Positions 6,044 to 54,853 of a stretch of 64,000 nt of DNA are shown here, piece by piece. The DNA is taken from the NCBI GenBank assembly GCA_021735045.1, contig JAIPHU010000002.1:10120-74119 (forward strand). Direction: 5' to 3'. A model generated the notes under the pieces. It searched no databases and was not told where the DNA came from. It saw only the letters and a program-made list of their open reading frames with translations. A program made the position numbers and the translations under genes. This DNA is from Candidatus Omnitrophota bacterium. GTDB taxonomy: Bacteria > Omnitrophota > Gorgyraeia > Duberdicusellales > 4484-171. Every line of letters begins with the position of its first letter. Within the stretch, counting starts at the first letter, position 1.

Positions 6044-7876
6044 ATGAATAAGAAAAAATTAATTGATTCTTTGATTTTATTTACTTTGGTTGCAGTGATG
6101 GTCTATGTTGTAACCAGGGCGGTTTTAGTTGGTTATGCTGATTATACTGGCTGGGATCGTTTTAGTGCTATCGGTTTGTTGCTGGCAGAGTTGTTTGTAG
6201 TTTTTCATGGCGTAGGTTATACCTTAAACATCTATCGGGCTTATAGGTATAGTGGTGGAAAAGAAAAGATGCAAGAGGTAGCAAATAAACCTTTGCCAGA
6301 GGAACCATCGGTTGCGATATTTGTTGCTGCGCGCCATGAACCAAAAGAAGTTTTAGAGGAAACTTTTATTAGCATCAAAAACTTAAAATATAAAAATAAG
6401 AGTATTTATTTCCTTGATGATAGCTCTAAAAGCACTTATAAAAAAGAAGCAGATCAATTAGCAAAAGATCTAGATTTAAAGATTTTTCGACGCAAGGATC
6501 GCCACGGAGCAAAGGCAGGAATCATTAATGATTGTCTAAAGACAATTAATTCTAAGTATTTAGTTGTTTTTGATGCAGATCAGAATCCGCTACCTGAGTT
6601 TTTAAATCGTGTGGTGGCGTTGATGGAGTCGGACCAAAGACTTGCTTTTGTCCAAACCCCTCAATTTTATAGTAATGTGGAAGGTTCACAAATTGCCAAA
6701 GCGGCGGCTTTTCAGCAAGCGGTATTTTATGAATATATCTGTGAAGGAAAAAGTAGCCAGGATGCGATGTTTTGTTGCGGAACAAATATTATTTTTCGCA
6801 AAAAAGCCTTAGATCAAGTAGGTGGCCTAGATGAAAGTACAGTTACCGAAGATTTTGCCACTTCTTTTAAATTTCACCAAAAAGGCTGGAACTCTTTATA
6901 TTACAATCATGTCTATGCTTTTGGGATGGGGCCGGAAGATTTAGTCGGTTATTTTAAGCAGCAATACCGTTGGGCCAACGGCACGATCACTGTTTTTAAG
7001 AAAGTGTTAAAGAATTTAATATTGCACCCATTTTCTTTAAAAATTAAACAATGGGTAGAGTATTTACTTTCCAGCAGTTACTATCTAGTTGGTTTTGCCT
7101 TATTTGGCTTGATGCTTTTTCCGATCTTTTATCTTTTATTTGACATCCCTTCTTTCTTTGCTAAGCCACAAGTTTATTTTTTAGTTTTTTTACCTTATAT
7201 AACTCTTTCTTTAAGTATATTTTATTTCGTGTTAAAAGAAAGGAACTATACTGCCGGAGATCTTTTTAAAGGCCAGCTGGCCGGGTTTATAAGCTTTCCG
7301 ATCTATTTGCAAGCCGCTGTTTCTTCCTTTTTTGGCAGAAAGGCTACTTTCGGGATAACCTCAAAAGCAAAGGGGAAGTTTGTATCTTATTTTAGATTGT
7401 GGCCGCAAATTGTACTTTTATTCCTAAATTATATTGCGATTGTCTGGGGAATGAATCGATTCATCTATCAACGTGATCCGGCGGTAGTAATTAATGTTTT
7501 TTGGGCCTTTTATCATTTTTTGCTGTTAGCTTCTATTTTTTATTTTAACGAAAGGATTATTCCTAAGGCTTTTTTAAAAAAAATTGCGAAAGAGAGAATA
7601 GTTGACTATCAAGTTCTCGAGAGAAATCGCCCCAAACCTGAATTAAACTCTAGGAATTGGCCGGTTTGTTTTGCGACCAAGTTGCCGGATCGATTAAAAG
7701 AGGGAACACTGTTGATGGCAAAAGTAAAAAGCAGAGGAGGAAAGCAGCTAATCTTTGACGCAGAAGTTACCTGGGCGAGTCCCAGAAAGCGGTTTGGCGG
7801 TTATGCTACTGGCTTTGGAGTTGCCAAGGCTTCACCGGAAATTATTACCCAATTAAGGAAATTAGTAAAAAAATGA
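6044..7876 (+). CDS. processive GT2 glycosyltransferase with C-terminal PilZ domain (BcsA-like c-di-GMP-dependent polysaccharide synthase)
   Basis: Motifs FLDDSS, VFDADQ, TVTEDF (TED), FCCGTN (FFCGS-like) and QQYRWANG (QxxRW). Multiple TM helices. C-terminal RNRPKPELNSR...GGKQLIF...VTWASP resembles a PilZ domain. Confidence 0.85.
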   Translation: MNKKKLIDSLILFTLVAVMVYVVTRAVLVGYADYTGWDRFSAIGLLLAELFVVFHGVGYTLNIYRAYRYSGGKEKMQEVANKPLPEEPSVAIFVAARHEPKEVLEETFISIKNLKYKNKSIYFLDDSSKSTYKKEADQLAKDLDLKIFRRKDRHGAKAGIINDCLKTINSKYLVVFDADQNPLPEFLNRVVALMESDQRLAFVQTPQFYSNVEGSQIAKAAAFQQAVFYEYICEGKSSQDAMFCCGTNIIFRKKALDQVGGLDESTVTEDFATSFKFHQKGWNSLYYNHVYAFGMGPEDLVGYFKQQYRWANGTITVFKKVLKNLILHPFSLKIKQWVEYLLSSSYYLVGFALFGLMLFPIFYLLFDIPSFFAKPQVYFLVFLPYITLSLSIFYFVLKERNYTAGDLFKGQLAGFISFPIYLQAAVSSFFGRKATFGITSKAKGKFVSYFRLWPQIVLLFLNYIAIVWGMNRFIYQRDPAVVINVFWAFYHFLLLASIFYFNERIIPKAFLKKIAKERIVDYQVLERNRPKPELNSRNWPVCFATKLPDRLKEGTLLMAKVKSRGGKQLIFDAEVTWASPRKRFGGYATGFGVAKASPEIITQLRKLVKK

Positions 7877-22607: not shown

Positions 22608-23660
22608 ATGAGCGATAAGATTAAACAAATCTTAGGGGATGATGCAAAAGATTTATTAGAACACAGTTGCCAAACTATCTCTAAGGATGACCTGCATCTA
22701 CCAGGGTCTGATTTTGTGGATAAGATTCATGCTGGTTCTGATCGGCCCAACAACGTGTTAAGAAATTTACAGGAAACTCTTAATCACGGAAGGTTAGGCG
22801 GAACCGGTTATTTGTCGGTTCTACCGGTTGACCAGGGTATCGAACACACTGCCGGTGCATCATTTGCGCCAAATCCGATCTATTTTGATCCAGAGAATAT
22901 TGTAAAGTTAGCGATAGAAGGTGGTTGCAATGCAGTAGCCTCAACTCTGGGAGTATTAGGCATCGTTTCCCGGAAATATTGTCATAAAATACCTTTTATT
23001 GTAAAAATTAATCATAATGAGCTTCTAACCTATCCTAACTCATATGATCAAAGATTGTTTGCCAACGTGGAACAAGCATTTGAAATGGGAGCAACTGGAG
23101 TGGGTGCGACTATTTATTTTGGTTCAGCACAGTCTCGGCGTCAAATTGAAGAAATATCGGAAGCTTTTGCTCGTGCCCATGAGTTAGGAATGTATACAGT
23201 ATTATGGTGTTACTTGCGTAATTCAGATTTTAAAAAAGATGGTAAAGACTATCATACGGCTGCTGATTTAACCGGGCAGGCAAATCATCTTGGGGTAACT
23301 ATTGAAGCTGATATTATTAAGCAGAAACAACCTACTCTAAATGGTGGTTTTGATGCAATTGGTTTTGGTAAGACTCATCCTTTGATGTATGAAAAATTAA
23401 GTTCAAATCATCCTATTGATTTAACTCGTTATCAAGTTGCAAATTGTTATATGGGAAGAGCCGGTTTGATTAACTCCGGTGGAGCATCTGGGAAAAACGA
23501 TATGCAACAAGCGGTAAAGACTGCAGTAATTAACAAACGAGCTGGAGGAATGGGTTTAATTTCAGGAAGAAAGGCTTTTCAGAAACCAATGGAAGAAGGA
23601 GTTGAAATTCTTAACGCTATCCAAGATGTTTATCTTGATCAAGAAATAACTATTGCCTAG
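22608..23660 (+). CDS. fbaB: class I fructose-bisphosphate aldolase, DhnA/FbaB type
   Basis: 350 aa. Colinear with E. coli FbaB as I recall it: GTGYLS(V/I)LPVDQG(I/V)[21 protein letters not shown] and KRAGGMGLI. Confidence 0.9.
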
Positions 23661-23667
23661 GTGTAGT

Positions 23668-23692
23668 AAGGTATTCGCTAAATAGTTGCATT
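23668..23692 (+). repeat. partial copy of the dnaK-leader motif AAGGTATTCGCTAAATA(G)TTGCATT
   Basis: Matches the first ~25 nt of the motifs at 23743 and 52892. Confidence 0.5.
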
Positions 23693-23742
23693 AAGTATAA
23701 GACACTACGCCGAGTAATTCGGCTTAAGTGTCATTAAAAATA

Positions 23743-23786
23743 AAGGTATCCGCTAAATAATTGCATTTTTAATGAGGAGGTGGAAG
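23743..23786 (+). promoter_or_regulatory. duplicate of the grpE-dnaK intergenic RBS cassette (about 36 of 43 nt identical to 52892..52933), driving a 28-codon ORF
   Basis: aaggtatccgctaaataattgcatttttaatgaggaggtggaag + ATG, compared with aaggtattcgctaaataataacatttttaatggaggtagaag + ATG(dnaK). Confidence 0.5.
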
Positions 23787-23873
23787 ATGTGTTCAATCTT
23801 TGCGAAGCAAAGCGGTCCGAAGGACAAATTGAACCCATCGGTTTTAGTAATAGCAATTTTTCTTAAGAGATAA
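23787..23873 (+). CDS. 28-codon small ORF / possible leader peptide (MCSIFAKQSGPKDKLNPSVLVIAIFLKR) behind the duplicated dnaK RBS cassette
   Basis: Strong RBS GGAGG 7 nt upstream. Contains the palindromic segments ctttgcgaagcaaag and ttcaat...attgaa. Coding status unproven. Confidence 0.25.
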   Translation: MCSIFAKQSGPKDKLNPSVLVIAIFLKR

Positions 23874-23914
23874 AGGATTTGCAAATTAGGAGATAAAAGC
23901 ATAGGAGGTAAGAG

Positions 23915-24103
23915 ATGAAGGTAAAAGTTGATCCAGAAAAATGTATCGGTTGTCAAATGTGTGTGCAGGTTGCACCTGATCTATTTGAGATGAAAGAAGA
24001 TAAAGCTGAAGCAAAGGTTGAAGAAGTGCCTGAAGACAAACAGGATGAAGCTAAACAATCCTCAGAACAATGTCCTGTAGATGCAATCTCGATTGAAGAG
24101 TAA
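23915..24103 (+). CDS. small single-cluster ferredoxin
   Basis: CIGCQMCVQVAP...CPVDAI (CxxCxxC...CP). RBS ggaggt. Confidence 0.8.
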   Translation: MKVKVDPEKCIGCQMCVQVAPDLFEMKEDKAEAKVEEVPEDKQDEAKQSSEQCPVDAISIEE

Positions 24104-24126: not shown

Positions 24127-24157
24127 GGCCCCGAAATCGTTTGGTTTCGGGGTTTTT
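24127..24157 (+). terminator. rho-independent terminator after the ferredoxin gene
   Basis: CCCCGAAA-tcgtttgg-TTTCGGGG followed by T5. Confidence 0.7.
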
Positions 24158-24194: not shown

Positions 24195-24271
24195 AATTAA
24201 CCAATTAACCAATTAACCAATTAACCAATTAACCAATTAACCAATTAACCAATTAACCAATTAACCAATTA
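24195..24271 (+). repeat. about 9.6 perfect tandem copies of the octamer AATTAACC (CCAATTAA register) running directly into the ATG at 24272
   Basis: Counted directly: 9 full units, and the 10th unit is converted into the start codon (aattaATG). There is no Shine-Dalgarno sequence. Confidence 0.95.
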
Positions 24272-51453: not shown

Positions 51454-51481
51454 TTGACACAAAAGTTTTGTATGCTAACAT
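51454..51481 (+). promoter_or_regulatory. sigma70 promoter TTGACA-16-TAACAT abutting CIRCE
   Basis: Read directly. Confidence 0.5.
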
Positions 51482-51482
51482 A

Positions 51483-51509
51483 TTAGCACTCCCCGATTCA
51501 GAGTGCTAA
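51483..51509 (+). promoter_or_regulatory. CIRCE operator TTAGCACTC-N9-GAGTGCTAA upstream of hrcA
   Basis: Perfect consensus read directly. Confidence 0.9.
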
Positions 51510-52268: not shown

Positions 52269-52892
52269 GTGGAGGTAGAGATGAGTAAGAAAAAAAATAA
52301 ACAAGATAAAAAAACAGAACAAACAGATAACCAAAAAGATAAGGAACAAAATTTAAAATCTAAAGAAACAGAGGCAGAGATGATTGCCAAGCAAAAACAA
52401 GAGTATCAAGATTTGTGGAACAGGTATCTTAGGCTCCAAGCAGAATTTGATAATTACCGCAAAAGATCTTTGCAAGAAAAGGCAGAGTTTATTAAATTTG
52501 CCAATCAGGGCCTTATCTCAGAATTAATCGGTATTTTAGATAATTTTGAGTTAAGTGTTAAATACGCTGATAAAAAAGATGATTTTAAGTTGATGCATCA
52601 AGGTGTGGATATGATTATAAAACAGCTTCATACTCTTCTTAAGTCCAAGGGGCTGGAGAAAATAAAAACGGTGGGAGAAAAATTTGATCCTCATAAACAC
52701 GATGCTTTAACTACGGTTGAAGACCAAGGCCTAGATAGTGATACAGTAGTTGAAGAGTTACAAACTGGATATTTACTTTCGGGCAGAATTTTACGTCCCG
52801 CTAAGGTAAAAGTGGCAAAACCAAAAAAAAGTTCTCAAGAAGAGGGGAGAAGCAAAGAGCAACCAGAAGATAATAAAGAAGAAAAAAAATAA
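52269..52892 (+). CDS. grpE: nucleotide exchange factor GrpE
   Basis: Acidic/K-rich N-terminus. RLQAEFDNYRKR GrpE signature. Confidence 0.9.
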   Translation: MEVEMSKKKNKQDKKTEQTDNQKDKEQNLKSKETEAEMIAKQKQEYQDLWNRYLRLQAEFDNYRKRSLQEKAEFIKFANQGLISELIGILDNFELSVKYADKKDDFKLMHQGVDMIIKQLHTLLKSKGLEKIKTVGEKFDPHKHDALTTVEDQGLDSDTVVEELQTGYLLSGRILRPAKVKVAKPKKSSQEEGRSKEQPEDNKEEKK

Positions 52893-52933
52893 AGGTATTC
52901 GCTAAATAATAACATTTTTAATGGAGGTAGAAG
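52892..52933 (+). promoter_or_regulatory. grpE-dnaK intergenic RBS cassette (original copy of the motif duplicated at 23743..23786)
   Basis: aaggtattcgctaaataataacatttttaatggaggtagaag + ATG. Contains UCGCU about 20 nt 5' of the GGAGG, a ROSE-like arrangement. Confidence 0.5.
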
Positions 52934-54853
52934 ATGGCAAAAATAATTGGAATTGATTTAGGTACATCGAACTCATCAGCAGCTATAATGGAAGGTGGAA
53001 GACCTTCAATAATTCCTTCGGCTGAAGGCGCTGGAGTTGCAAGTGGAAAAGCTTTTCCTTCAGTAGTTGCTTTTACTAAAGACGGGCAAAAATTGGTAGG
53101 CGAACCGGCTCGCAGGCAAGCTTCGGTCAATCCGGAAGGAACTATAAGCGGGGCAAAAAGAAAAATGGGGACGCAGTTTAAATTTAAAGTTTACGATAAA
53201 GAGTATACCCCGCAACAAATTTCTGCTTTTGTTTTACAAAAAATAAAAGCAGATGCCCAAAGTTATTTAGGTGGTGAAATAAAAGATGCAGTTGTGACTG
53301 TACCGGCTTATTTTAACGATAATCAGAGGCAAGCAACAAAAGATGCAGGTACTATTGCTGGTTTGAATATAAAAAGAATTATCAATGAACCTACTGCAGC
53401 TTGTCTTGCTTATGGCTTAAATAAAGTTGGCAAGGAACTTAAGATCATGGTTTTTGATTTTGGTGGAGGAACCTTAGATGTAACTATTATGGAGATGTGG
53501 GAAGAGGGCGGTTTTAAAGTCCTTTCTACCCATGGTGATACAAACTTAGGTGGACGGGATATGGATCAAGCTTTAGTTGACTATATCGCAGAAGATTTTA
53601 AAAAAGAAACTGGTATTGACCTACGCAAAGATAAGATGGCAGATCAACGTTTGAGAGAGGCGGCAGAAAAAGCTAAAATTGAATTATCCAGCACTCTAAC
53701 TACCGAGATTAATCTTCCCTTTATTACAGCTGATCAATCTGGCCCTAAGCATCTTACTAAAACAATCAATAGAGCAAAATTAGAAGATTTAGTAAAGTCT
53801 ATTGTAGAAAAGACTGAAGGGCCAATTAAGCAAGCAGTAAATGATGCAAAGCTTACTACCAAAGATATTGATAAAATTATTATGGTAGGGGGGCCGACTC
53901 GGATGCCGCTTGTGCAAAAAACAGTCGAAGATTTCGTAGGAACAAAGATTGAAAGAGGGATTGATCCTATGGAATGTGTATCAATGGGCGCTGCAATTCA
54001 AGGTTCTATTATCACCGGAGAGACTAAAGATGTCCTCTTGCTTGATGTTACACCCTTATCATTAGGCCTGGAAACATTAGGAGGAGTTTTTACTAAACTC
54101 ATTCCTAGAAACACTACGATACCTACTAAAAAAAGCCAAATTTTTTCAACTGCAGAAGATAATCAAACTGCAGTAACTATTAGAGTCTTGCAAGGTGAAA
54201 GAGAGATGGCTAAAGGAAATACTGAGTTAGGTAGGTTTGATCTTGTTGGTATTCCTCCTGCACCTCGAGGTGTCCCTCAGATTGAAGTTACTTTTGATAT
54301 TGATTCTAATGGAATTGTCCATGTATCGGCTAAAGACAAAGGTACTGGCAAAGAACAGTCAATAAGGATAACTGCTCCGCAAAAACTTTCAGATGAGGAT
54401 ATTGATAAAATGGTTAAGGAAGCAGAAAAACATGCCGAAGAAGACAAAAAACAAAAAGAATTGATTGAAGTTAAAAATAAAGCAGATTCAGTAGTTTATA
54501 CTACAGAAAAATCACTAAAAGATTATGGAGACAAGATCTCTGATCAAGAAAAGAAAACAATAGAAGAAAAGGTTAATAATTTAAAAGAAATTTTGAAAAA
54601 ATCTGATAGTACCAAAGAACAAATTGAAAAGGCTATGGAAGAGGCTACACAAGCTTCTCACAAGCTGGCTGAACAGATGTATAAAGCTCAAGGCGCACAA
54701 CAACAGCAAAAACAAGCTGGAACCGGTGGGCCGGGCCAAGAAGGAGCTCAAAGTTCAGAGGATCAGCAGCAACAAGCTCAGCAGCAAAGCAAAGGAGAAG
54801 AAGACGTAGTTGATGCTGAATATAAGGAAGAAGACAACAAAGACAATAAATAG
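52934..54853 (+). CDS. dnaK: chaperone DnaK (Hsp70)
   Basis: [18 protein letters not shown] and the rest of the canonical Hsp70 sequence. Acidic/Q-rich C-terminus. Confidence 0.97.

Follow-up and report, generated by a model that had tools for sequence, protein, structure and literature searches.

A short modular repeat with two covarying hairpins sits between co-directional genes in a few Candidatus Omnitrophota genomes

We analysed a 64,000-nt stretch of contig JAIPHU010000002.1 from a Candidatus Omnitrophota bacterium (the window, read on its + strand, on which all window features described here lie) and, within it, the 254-nt spacer between fbaB and a ferredoxin gene, fdx (23661-23914), part of which recurs at the grpE-dnaK junction. 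We conclude with high confidence that this shared feature belongs to a dispersed structured repeat, of which it is one copy, and is not specific to dnaK. The repeat is clade-specific, modular, short and interspersed, and it is confined to a few related Candidatus Omnitrophota genomes. A first-pass annotation of this DNA had suggested an element that co-regulates dnaK and the ferredoxin, and had reckoned that many scattered copies would speak instead for a generic repeat. Many copies are indeed seen elsewhere, the same element standing before at least ten unrelated genes and three tRNA genes in five other genomes, and the co-regulation idea falls with them. As to function, we favour a portable cassette that joins an internal promoter to cistron punctuation, a statement that, taken whole and with its promoter function included, we hold at about even chances.

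Three copies of a core sequence are found in the window. The motif AAGGTATYCGCTAAATA is present at 23668, 23743 and 52892, a number that no shuffle had, and the pattern AAGGTATTCGCTAAATA matches at the same positions with zero, one and zero mismatches, respectively. Shuffled windows held on average 0.52 matches to AAGGTATTCGCTAAATA at up to 3 mismatches, and three matches were reached in 0 of 100 shuffles. Copy B (23743-23789) and copy C (52892-52936) are identical in about 41 of 47 aligned columns, so that the 36 of 43 identities first reported for this pair were about right; they differ by four substitutions and one 2-nt indel, and their likeness extends over the A/T-rich ATTTTTAAT, GGAGGT and the ATG. 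Copy A, previously described as partial, is real and has only its first 25 nt (23668-23692) in common with the other copies, at 92% identity. To these we add a hairpin between copies A and B (hp1), an inverted repeat around core B (hp2), and copies outside these two loci.

Within the fbaB-fdx spacer, the A-type core copy A (AAGGTATTCGCTAAATAGTTGCATT, 23668-23692) is followed by AAGTATAA (23693-23700) and then by hp1 (23701-23732; GACACT-AC-GCCGA-GTAAT-TCGGC-TTA-AGTGTC), a 32-nt conserved module of the repeat whose fold has a z score of -2.05. Next comes hp2 (23731-23775), recognised by inverted-repeat detection, covariation and a promoter-like match, in which the arms TCATTAAAAAT (23731-23741) and ATTTTTAATGA (23765-23775) are complementary at 11 of 11 positions and core copy B (AAGGTATCCGCTAAATAATTGCATT, 23743-23767) forms the loop. 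The covariance model scores 23701-23781 at 97.3 bits. At the second locus, the solo copy C consists of the core with the 3′ arm (AAGGTATTCGCTAAATAATAACATTTTTAAT, 52892-52922; 34.2 bits), without hp1 and without a proper 5′ arm. It occupies the whole grpE-dnaK junction: the TAA of grpE (52890-52892) overlaps its 5′ edge, and the Shine-Dalgarno sequence (SD) GGAGG (52923-52927) and the dnaK ATG (52934) come after it.

For the comparison with other genomes, all of which are fragmented metagenome-assembled genomes (MAGs), we refer to individual loci by L-numbers (L001 and so on). An exact scan with AAGGTATYCGYTAAATARNNNNATT across one genome per species (185,579 species) returned 20 loci, 16 of which lie in five Omnitrophota MAGs with 7, 3, 2, 2 and 2 loci per genome. 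The four remaining matches, in two Clostridia, in Synechococcales and in Tenacibaculum, have no arms, hairpin or SD context and were set aside as chance. A pattern scan of metagenome contigs gave just two chance matches and did not enlarge the family, and a covariance-model search with filters off found no additional or divergent copies, whether in the window or across 178 kb of related loci. Hamming distances to the core fall into two groups, true copies at 0-3 mismatches and background at 4 or more. The density is low, two loci in the 64-kb window and none in 63 kb of L030, L032 and L033. Over 84 nt, copy B and a copy before a glycosyltransferase gene in another species (L013) are 96% identical, and four contigs end within the element (L010, L023, L024 and L026), as expected of a repeat. 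The family thus shows the traits of a short interspersed intergenic repeat: several near-identical copies per genome at unrelated sites, presence/absence polymorphism and a structure kept by compensatory changes. We found no description of this repeat in the searchable literature or in Rfam; Rfam searches at the gathering score and at E up to 10 gave no family match, only two meaningless miRNA matches in the window and the tRNAs in the compared loci.

The repeat is built from modules. A solo core measures about 45 nt and a full unit about 80-125 nt, the latter running from an optional first core with AAGTATAA through hp1 and hp2 to the SD or the tRNA. The hp1 consensus is GGCACT-TC-GCCGA-GnAAT-TCGGC-TC-AGTGCC, and the hp2 consensus has a 5′ arm ATTGAAAAT, a 25-nt invariant loop or core AAAGGTATTCGCTAAATAATTnC and a 3′ arm ATTTTCAAT, after which the GG of the SD or base 1 of the tRNA follows directly. 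The extra core with AAGTATAA 5′ of hp1 is found in window copy A, in L008 and in L026 and, degenerate, in L016 and L025; the core-AAGTATAAG-hp1 arrangement of copy A recurs in L008, with degenerate versions in L016, L025 and L026. Solo cores with the 3′ arm only are window copy C and the copies in L004, L006, L009, L014 and L020, and partial and tandem copies occur in the window (A/B), in L024 and in L008.

Both hairpins are backed by covariation. Across nine full copies the 21 pairs are 99.5% paired, and compensatory changes on both sides are seen in 9 of the 21: 6 of the 12 pairs of hp1 and 3 of the 9 stem pairs of hp2, the latter 100% paired. None of 500 shuffles reached the observed level, and sliding the partners lowered pairing to 31-45%. 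RNAalifold recovers both hairpins independently, together with a 4-bp apical stem in which the L024 variant carries one compensatory U-A to A-U change (pair 52-58). The consensus minimum free energy (MFE) structure is hp1 plus hp2, and hp2 alone has a predicted -8.6 to -10.5 kcal/mol at 37 C and is stabler at 10 C. Two variants of hp2, ATTGAAAAT/ATTTTCAAT and ATTAAAAAT/ATTTTTAAT, coexist in one genome (JAIPHS: L015 and L027 versus L016 and L008), and this A/G versus T/C covariation within a single genome points to base pairing rather than to drifting protein specificity. Wobble pairs are few and conflict on the strand, with G·U on the + strand in L019 hp2 and in hp1 pair 14-18, and two + strand C×A mismatches in L026. 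We rejected hp1 as an intrinsic terminator, since it has no U-tract, whereas terminators of this genome have a canonical one (24127-24154). In L024, the spacer between two tandem elements upstream of tRNA-Gly (56-145) is itself stably folded (-29.2 kcal/mol, z -5.56); UUCAAU from the 3′ arm of the first element pairs there with a downstream AUUGA, and the spacer holds no credible open reading frame (ORF).

Next we examined where the copies lie relative to genes. Every Omnitrophota copy is co-directional with both neighbours (16 of 16) and takes up the space from a stop codon to the SD that comes next. This strand-specific position and the covariation-backed predicted structure are as would be expected of a structured cis-regulatory RNA. 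In nearly all copies, no nucleotide separates the 3′ edge from the SD or the tRNA +1. According to Pfam, the downstream genes are dnaK, clpC, clpP (after tig), rpoA (after rpsD), rpsF, ribH (after ribBA), purM (after purF), dapA (after dapF), a GT4 glycosyltransferase and an OmpA/Pal-like lipoprotein. Three copies stand directly before tRNA genes, tRNA-Gly(CCC) in two genomes and tRNA-Ala(GGC) once, and in all three the mature tRNA 5′ end falls exactly 12 nt after AATAAT or TATAAT. All three frames have a TAA in the core or at its 5′ edge (aTAAagg, cgcTAAa, aaaTAAt), and each TAA serves as a real stop somewhere: for grpE (window 52890-52912), for dapF (L019 6690-6712) and for the ORF before rpsF (L020 ~7832-7852). 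Insertions can thus replace C-terminal codons of the upstream gene.

Comparison with relatives marks the fbaB-fdx copy as an insertion of about 200 nt that is recent and specific to one lineage. Where the window has 254 nt between the two genes, L030 (FbaB 95% identical) and L032 (91%) have 31-32 nt, and this short spacer (ACGTTACAATTAGTGCAAATAGGAGGTTGAGG in L030, GTGACAGTTGATTTAAATAGGAGGTAAAAAA in L032) matches the last ~40 nt of the window spacer, which makes ~23668-23872 specific to the lineage of the window. The inserted part comprises core A, hp1, hp2 with core B, an SD and ATG, and 85 nt of unmatched sequence, while the native ferredoxin leader (…TTTGCAAATTAGGAG…GGAGGTAAGAG, 23874-23914) corresponds to the entire fbaB-fdx spacer of the relatives. 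A recent duplication had been one of the two alternatives of the first-pass annotation, and this part of it held up: the repeat is real and its fbaB-fdx copy is a recent duplicative insertion. Set against the empty sites of L030 and L032, the edges of the insertion show no terminal inverted repeats (TIR) and no target-site duplication (TSD), the inverted repeats being internal (hp1 and hp2), and the element therefore lacks the two marks of a miniature inverted-repeat transposable element (MITE).

Two observations concern this insertion site. The start of the native fdx leader (ATAAAGGATTTGCAAATTAGGAG, 23871-23893) resembles the core (ATAAAGGTATTCGCTAAATAGT) at about 17 of 21 positions with one gap; the relatives carry GTGCAAATAGGAGG at this place, and such core-like similarity might have guided insertion by recombination. 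In the closest relative by FbaB, L031 (JAIPHG010000009.1, 7053-7057; 95%), the contig ends 4 nt past the fbaB stop with TAAAAGT, an end compatible with the AAGTATAA-hp1 module, which would place an assembly break at the insertion site of the window.

The grpE-dnaK copy is an old, conserved solo core. It is present in four other lineages (L002, L004, L006/L007 and L014), preceded in L002 by the same hairpin as in the fbaB-fdx spacer of the window. Among these genomes the element is 81-97% identical, with four-fold sites of dnaK at 44-69% identity, and this conservation reflects either purifying selection or concerted evolution. The grpE-dnaK junction of L001 is without the element and has just ACAGAAAGGAGGTAGAAA; the L001 genome carries the element at rpsF and at the pal-like gene. 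As the GGAGGT-N6-ATG of dnaK is present in L001 as well, this SD is part of the gene, with the element stopping immediately 5′ of it. At dnaK, the ribosome-binding site is accordingly not part of the copied cassette, as had been supposed.

How might such an element act? In the reading that we favour, the repeat would spread or be copied among intergenic sites, where it would uncouple and boost the downstream gene and provide the upstream gene with TAA stops in three frames. The 5′ arm would hold the -35 (TTGAAA/TTAAAA) and the loop the -10 (AATAAT, or TATAAT in one variant) of a sigma-70-type promoter with a 16-nt spacer, an arrangement from which transcription would start within the 3′ arm. 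This start would precede the start codon by about 15-20 nt, or the mature tRNA 5′ end by 5-6 nt. When an operon is transcribed by read-through, both hairpins would form in the mRNA and would probably add a processing or stability function. The whole would be a composite cassette of stops, hairpins and internal promoter that would influence the downstream gene mainly through the promoter. By analogy, this composite view may be likened to the Correia elements of Neisseria.

We infer promoter activity and a start of transcription from hexamers and geometry. A promoter scan of the full copy in the window gives a -35 TTAAAA (23734-23739), 16 nt and a -10 AATAAT (23756-23761). Most full copies have TTGAAA at the place of the -35, and the sigma-70 hexamers with their spacing are found in full copies and not in solo copies. 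In L024, the copy before tRNA-Gly has a perfect TATAAT in the same register, and the hrcA promoter of the window likewise has a 16-nt spacer. From the -10 there are 12 nt to the tRNA +1 and 22-25 nt to the ATG, distances compatible with a predicted sigma-70 start. Each tRNA gene must have a promoter, and the stretch between element and tRNA offers no other candidate; in L033, a related genome without the element, tRNA-Ala(GGC) is preceded by TTGACT-17-AAATCT, ending 11 nt before the tRNA. The alternative register GGTATT-17-TT(T/C)AAT was discarded because the start would lie inside the mature tRNA. On inspection, readings of the sequence as sigma-54, sigma-28, sigma-B/H or extracytoplasmic-function-like promoters, CtsR boxes, boxA or integration host factor (IHF) sites failed on spacing or consensus.

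A number of points weigh against the promoter. Promoter-like hexamer pairs number 8 against 6.5 expected in 1.9 kb of AT-rich DNA, a rate near chance at which the -35/-10 match alone is not significant. The solo copies (at dnaK in window copy C, L004, L006 and L014; at clpC in L009; at rpsF in L020) have no -35-like hexamer and yet are conserved, and in L008 the hp2 loop has diverged (GAGGAATAACACCTGAATATATTC), with the clean -10 lost and the stem kept. A plain sigma-70 promoter leaves the near-invariant spacer AAGGTATTCGC unexplained, as it does the complementarity between the -35 and positions +1 to +10. Since all copies lie between co-directional genes, read-through is always possible and an internal promoter never strictly required. 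Finally, about 19 non-redundant copies were seen, most of them ascertained through the core pattern itself.

The main rival is a purely RNA-level element, which we regard as possible though rather doubtful. Here hp1 and hp2 would form in the operon mRNA and give an RNase or an RNA-binding protein a place to bind or cut, hp2 forming as an 11-bp A/U stem with an internal loop and an apical UAUU-CGCUA-AAUA mini-hairpin. Cleavage would cut polycistronic transcripts, leaving a 5′ hairpin beside the SD or releasing tRNA precursors, and would tune the downstream cistron in its relative stability and translation. Consistent with this, covariation is strong in all helices and reaches even the apical mini-stem, the consensus MFE is hp1 plus hp2, and the loop and internal loop are nearly invariant, as is typical of RNA recognised by protein. 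The placement is always intercistronic and co-directional, the stem is kept in L008 where the -10 is lost, and the + strand G·U pairs of L019 hp2 and of hp1 pair 14-18 suit an RNA. However, the solo cores at dnaK cannot form hp2 and are nevertheless the best-conserved orthologous copies, and the MFE of copy B itself does without hp2. A stem flush with the mature tRNA 5′ end, and extendable into positions 1-2, would hinder RNase P, and L026 has two + strand C×A mismatches with the G·U on the opposite strand. No Rfam family matches. A more specific form of this idea, an undescribed two-hairpin signal with an invariant 25-nt loop that a dedicated RNase or RNA-binding protein of the clade would recognise and that would punctuate polycistronic transcripts before highly expressed mRNAs and tRNAs, as a bacterial analogue of organellar punctuation spread as a mobile cassette, seems unlikely to us.

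The signs of movement could also be those of a functionless selfish DNA repeat, of the REP/RAYT or IS200/IS605-derived hairpin type, whose hairpins a transposase would recognise as single-stranded DNA; we judge this improbable. The uniform orientation would then come from replication-strand bias and the conservation from gene conversion among copies and from their recent spread. Polymorphic presence at orthologous sites, the 96% identity of copies at different genes in different species, contig breaks at the element, and partial and tandem copies (window A/B, L024 and L008) all suit such a repeat, and because the compensatory changes are all symmetric (GC to AT), DNA hairpins are equally compatible with them. 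Against it stands the 3′ edge, which lies at 0-nt slack from the SD or the tRNA +1 in nearly every copy, as does the grpE-dnaK solo core, kept in at least five species despite saturated synonymous divergence. The fbaB-fdx insertion has neither TSD nor terminal inverted repeats, the copy number is low, with two loci in the window, and none of the three compared loci L030, L032 and L033 has a copy in their 63 kb. No transposase was noticed beside any copy in fragments totalling ~300 kb, in which no systematic search for one was made.

We then considered the 28-codon ORF that the insertion brings upstream of fdx. Together with its SD-like GGAGG (23776-23780), this lineage-specific sequence spans 23776-23873, the ORF running from ATG 23787 to TAA 23873 (MCSIFAKQSGPKDKLNPSVLVIAIFLKR) in frame with a 33-aa ORF at 23772-23873. 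The first-pass annotation had offered, as one alternative, a segmental duplication that created a leader peptide here; a functional 28-aa peptide, or upstream ORF, would regulate the ferredoxin gene. In favour are a good SD, GGAGG 6 nt before ATG 23787, 28 open codons, and a possible attenuator made up of a structured region with GGTTTTAG behind it. The palindromes noted earlier within the ORF are likewise real, forming a Y-shaped three-way fold at 23786-23839 (-18 kcal/mol, z -2.45) with two GAA-looped hairpins in a GAUG.GUUCAAU / AUUGAAC.CAUC stem. That fold, which precedes GGTTTTAG, buries the ATG of the ORF in its stem, so that in the most stable local structure the first codons, ATG included, are base-paired. 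Moreover, the ORF is confined to this lineage, lying in an insertion that L030 and L032 do not have; among 1.84 billion representative proteins it has no homologue, the sole match, an RCC1-like repeat protein, being spurious, and the 85-nt sequence after copy B has no DNA match in the window or in any compared locus. The ferredoxin gene, for its part, retains its own native SD and leader. A functional leader peptide is therefore very unlikely, and to judge by sequence the ORF is not a conserved gene and should not be annotated. The Y-shaped fold and its trailing GGUUUUAG, which match nothing elsewhere, could be a small RNA or an attenuator imported with the insertion.

The other earlier proposal was a ROSE-type RNA thermometer, or a control shared by dnaK and the ferredoxin, in which UYGCU would pair with the SD. 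The arrangement that suggested it, UCGCU about 20 nt 5′ of GGAGG, is there, and in the MFE of copy B a UCCGCU:GGUGGA pairing is formed. This pairing is limited to copy B, depends on two bases peculiar to that copy and does not occur in the family consensus, which puts UUCGCU in the hp2 loop and the SD outside the stem. The dnaK copy folds no better than its shuffles (-3.9 kcal/mol, z -0.23) and has no SD-occluding stem. In silico, the probability that the SD is unpaired between 25 and 50 C is 0.71-0.73 in copy C (~72%) and 0.39-0.49 in copy B, and folding both sites across temperatures revealed no shared structure that occludes the SD or melts.

Heat-shock control of the dnaK operon is moreover accounted for elsewhere. 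The operon comprises clpB, a 111-aa S30AE-like ORF, hrcA, grpE, dnaK and dnaJ, with HrcA, GrpE, HSP70 and DnaJ assigned by Pfam and hrcA short (244 aa). Outside the repeat, upstream of hrcA, lies a canonical promoter (TTGACA, 16 nt, TGcTAACAT) with a perfect CIRCE (TTAGCACTC-N9-GAGTGCTAA, 51483-51509), the whole spanning 51454-51509, and this places the operon already under the expected heat-shock control. The CIRCE/HrcA operator and the repeat are alike in being associated with the dnaK operon; they are separate sites, and the core has no similarity to CIRCE. The element also stands before tRNAs and many genes outside the heat-shock response, and it is lacking at dnaK in L001 as well as at fdx in L030 and L032. 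With no Rfam ROSE match at E up to 10, and with no sign of SD sequestration, in silico melting or a link to small heat-shock genes, a thermometer is most unlikely.

Compared with known systems, the element behaves like the short interspersed repeats of bacteria (REP/BIME, ERIC, Correia and MIRU), and its architecture matches none of them, being without TIR or TSD, in a single orientation, in a fixed SD/tRNA register and with a 25-nt invariant loop. The extragenic hairpins of the REP/BIME and RAYT systems of enterobacteria and pseudomonads (for a REP survey see PMC12306157) are, like those described here, kept through compensatory changes. REP sequences further resemble the element in lying after stop codons inside operons, where they are transcribed and able to stabilise the upstream mRNA, and differ from it in being ~35 nt long, in hundreds of copies, often in inverted pairs and not tied to a downstream ribosome-binding site. 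We know of no promoter-like core or 25-nt invariant loop in REP. The Correia elements of Neisseria (CREE/NEMIS) are short (about 100-150 bp) multi-copy intergenic repeats beside genes, with outward sigma-70-like hexamers, co-transcribed hairpins that affect mRNA processing or stability, and strain polymorphism. They occur, however, in hundreds of copies of either orientation and possess 26-bp terminal inverted repeats, an IHF site and a TA target duplication, whereas the Omnitrophota element has two different internal hairpins, no visible TIR or TSD, few copies, one orientation and a fixed SD/tRNA register. Mycobacterial MIRUs are 40-100-bp intercistronic operon repeats that are likewise oriented with transcription and have stop and start signals overlapping or abutting genes; they differ as tandem variable-number units with small ORFs and translational coupling. 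To our knowledge, neither a conserved hairpin pair nor an association with tRNA genes has been described for them. With the ROSE thermometers of Rfam the element shares only UYGCU upstream of the SD; it matches no Rfam family, shows neither an SD-sequestering hairpin nor a conserved bulged G, is not predicted to melt and is not linked to small heat-shock genes.

The genes around the two window loci are as follows. At the first, the order is sufC-sufBD-fbaB-[element]-fdx. The gene upstream of the insertion, fbaB (22608-23660, TAG stop at 23658-23660), encodes a class I fructose-bisphosphate aldolase (FBA) of the DeoC/LacD family (Pfam PF01791, E 3.5e-62), and FbaB homologues in Omnitrophota MAGs carry the name class I FBA; together with GrpE homologues they assign the window to a MAG of Candidatus Omnitrophota. 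Downstream, fdx (23915-24103) encodes a single-cluster 4Fe-4S ferredoxin (Pfam PF13370 / PF13459), and the terminator scan places the canonical intrinsic terminator at 24127-24154, 3′ of this gene. At the second, the order is clpB-(S30AE-like)-hrcA-grpE-[element]-dnaK-dnaJ.

Beyond fdx, positions 24195-24270 of the window form a perfect tandem array of about 10 copies of the 8-mer AATTAACC, ending 1 nt before ATG 24272, the start of an AraC-type response regulator with a PAS histidine kinase coming after it. No SD lies between array and start, and the AATTAACC array could be a slipped-strand (phase-variable) switch or an unusual leader; in L030 and L032, other genes come after fdx. In the more distant relative L033 (11054-11600), fbaB is followed by ~550 nt of purine-rich degenerate repeats (AAGCTAAAAGC…, GGAGTAAGGATCTAGGAC…) that hold only tiny ORFs, and there is no fdx.

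With these results, what seemed a gene-specific regulatory oddity becomes a defined family of repeats in a phylum that is uncultured and little studied, a family with useful traits: a covariation-backed structure, a strict register from stop codon through element to SD or tRNA +1, and signs of recent movement. Metagenome assemblies break at such cassettes, and annotation can be misled by them, the spurious 28-codon ORF being an example; they can also rewire operon expression through internal promoters, processing sites and three-frame stops. If the element acts as an RNA, it would be a new cis-acting RNA motif; if the promoter reading is true, it would provide the first consensus for a strong Omnitrophota promoter.

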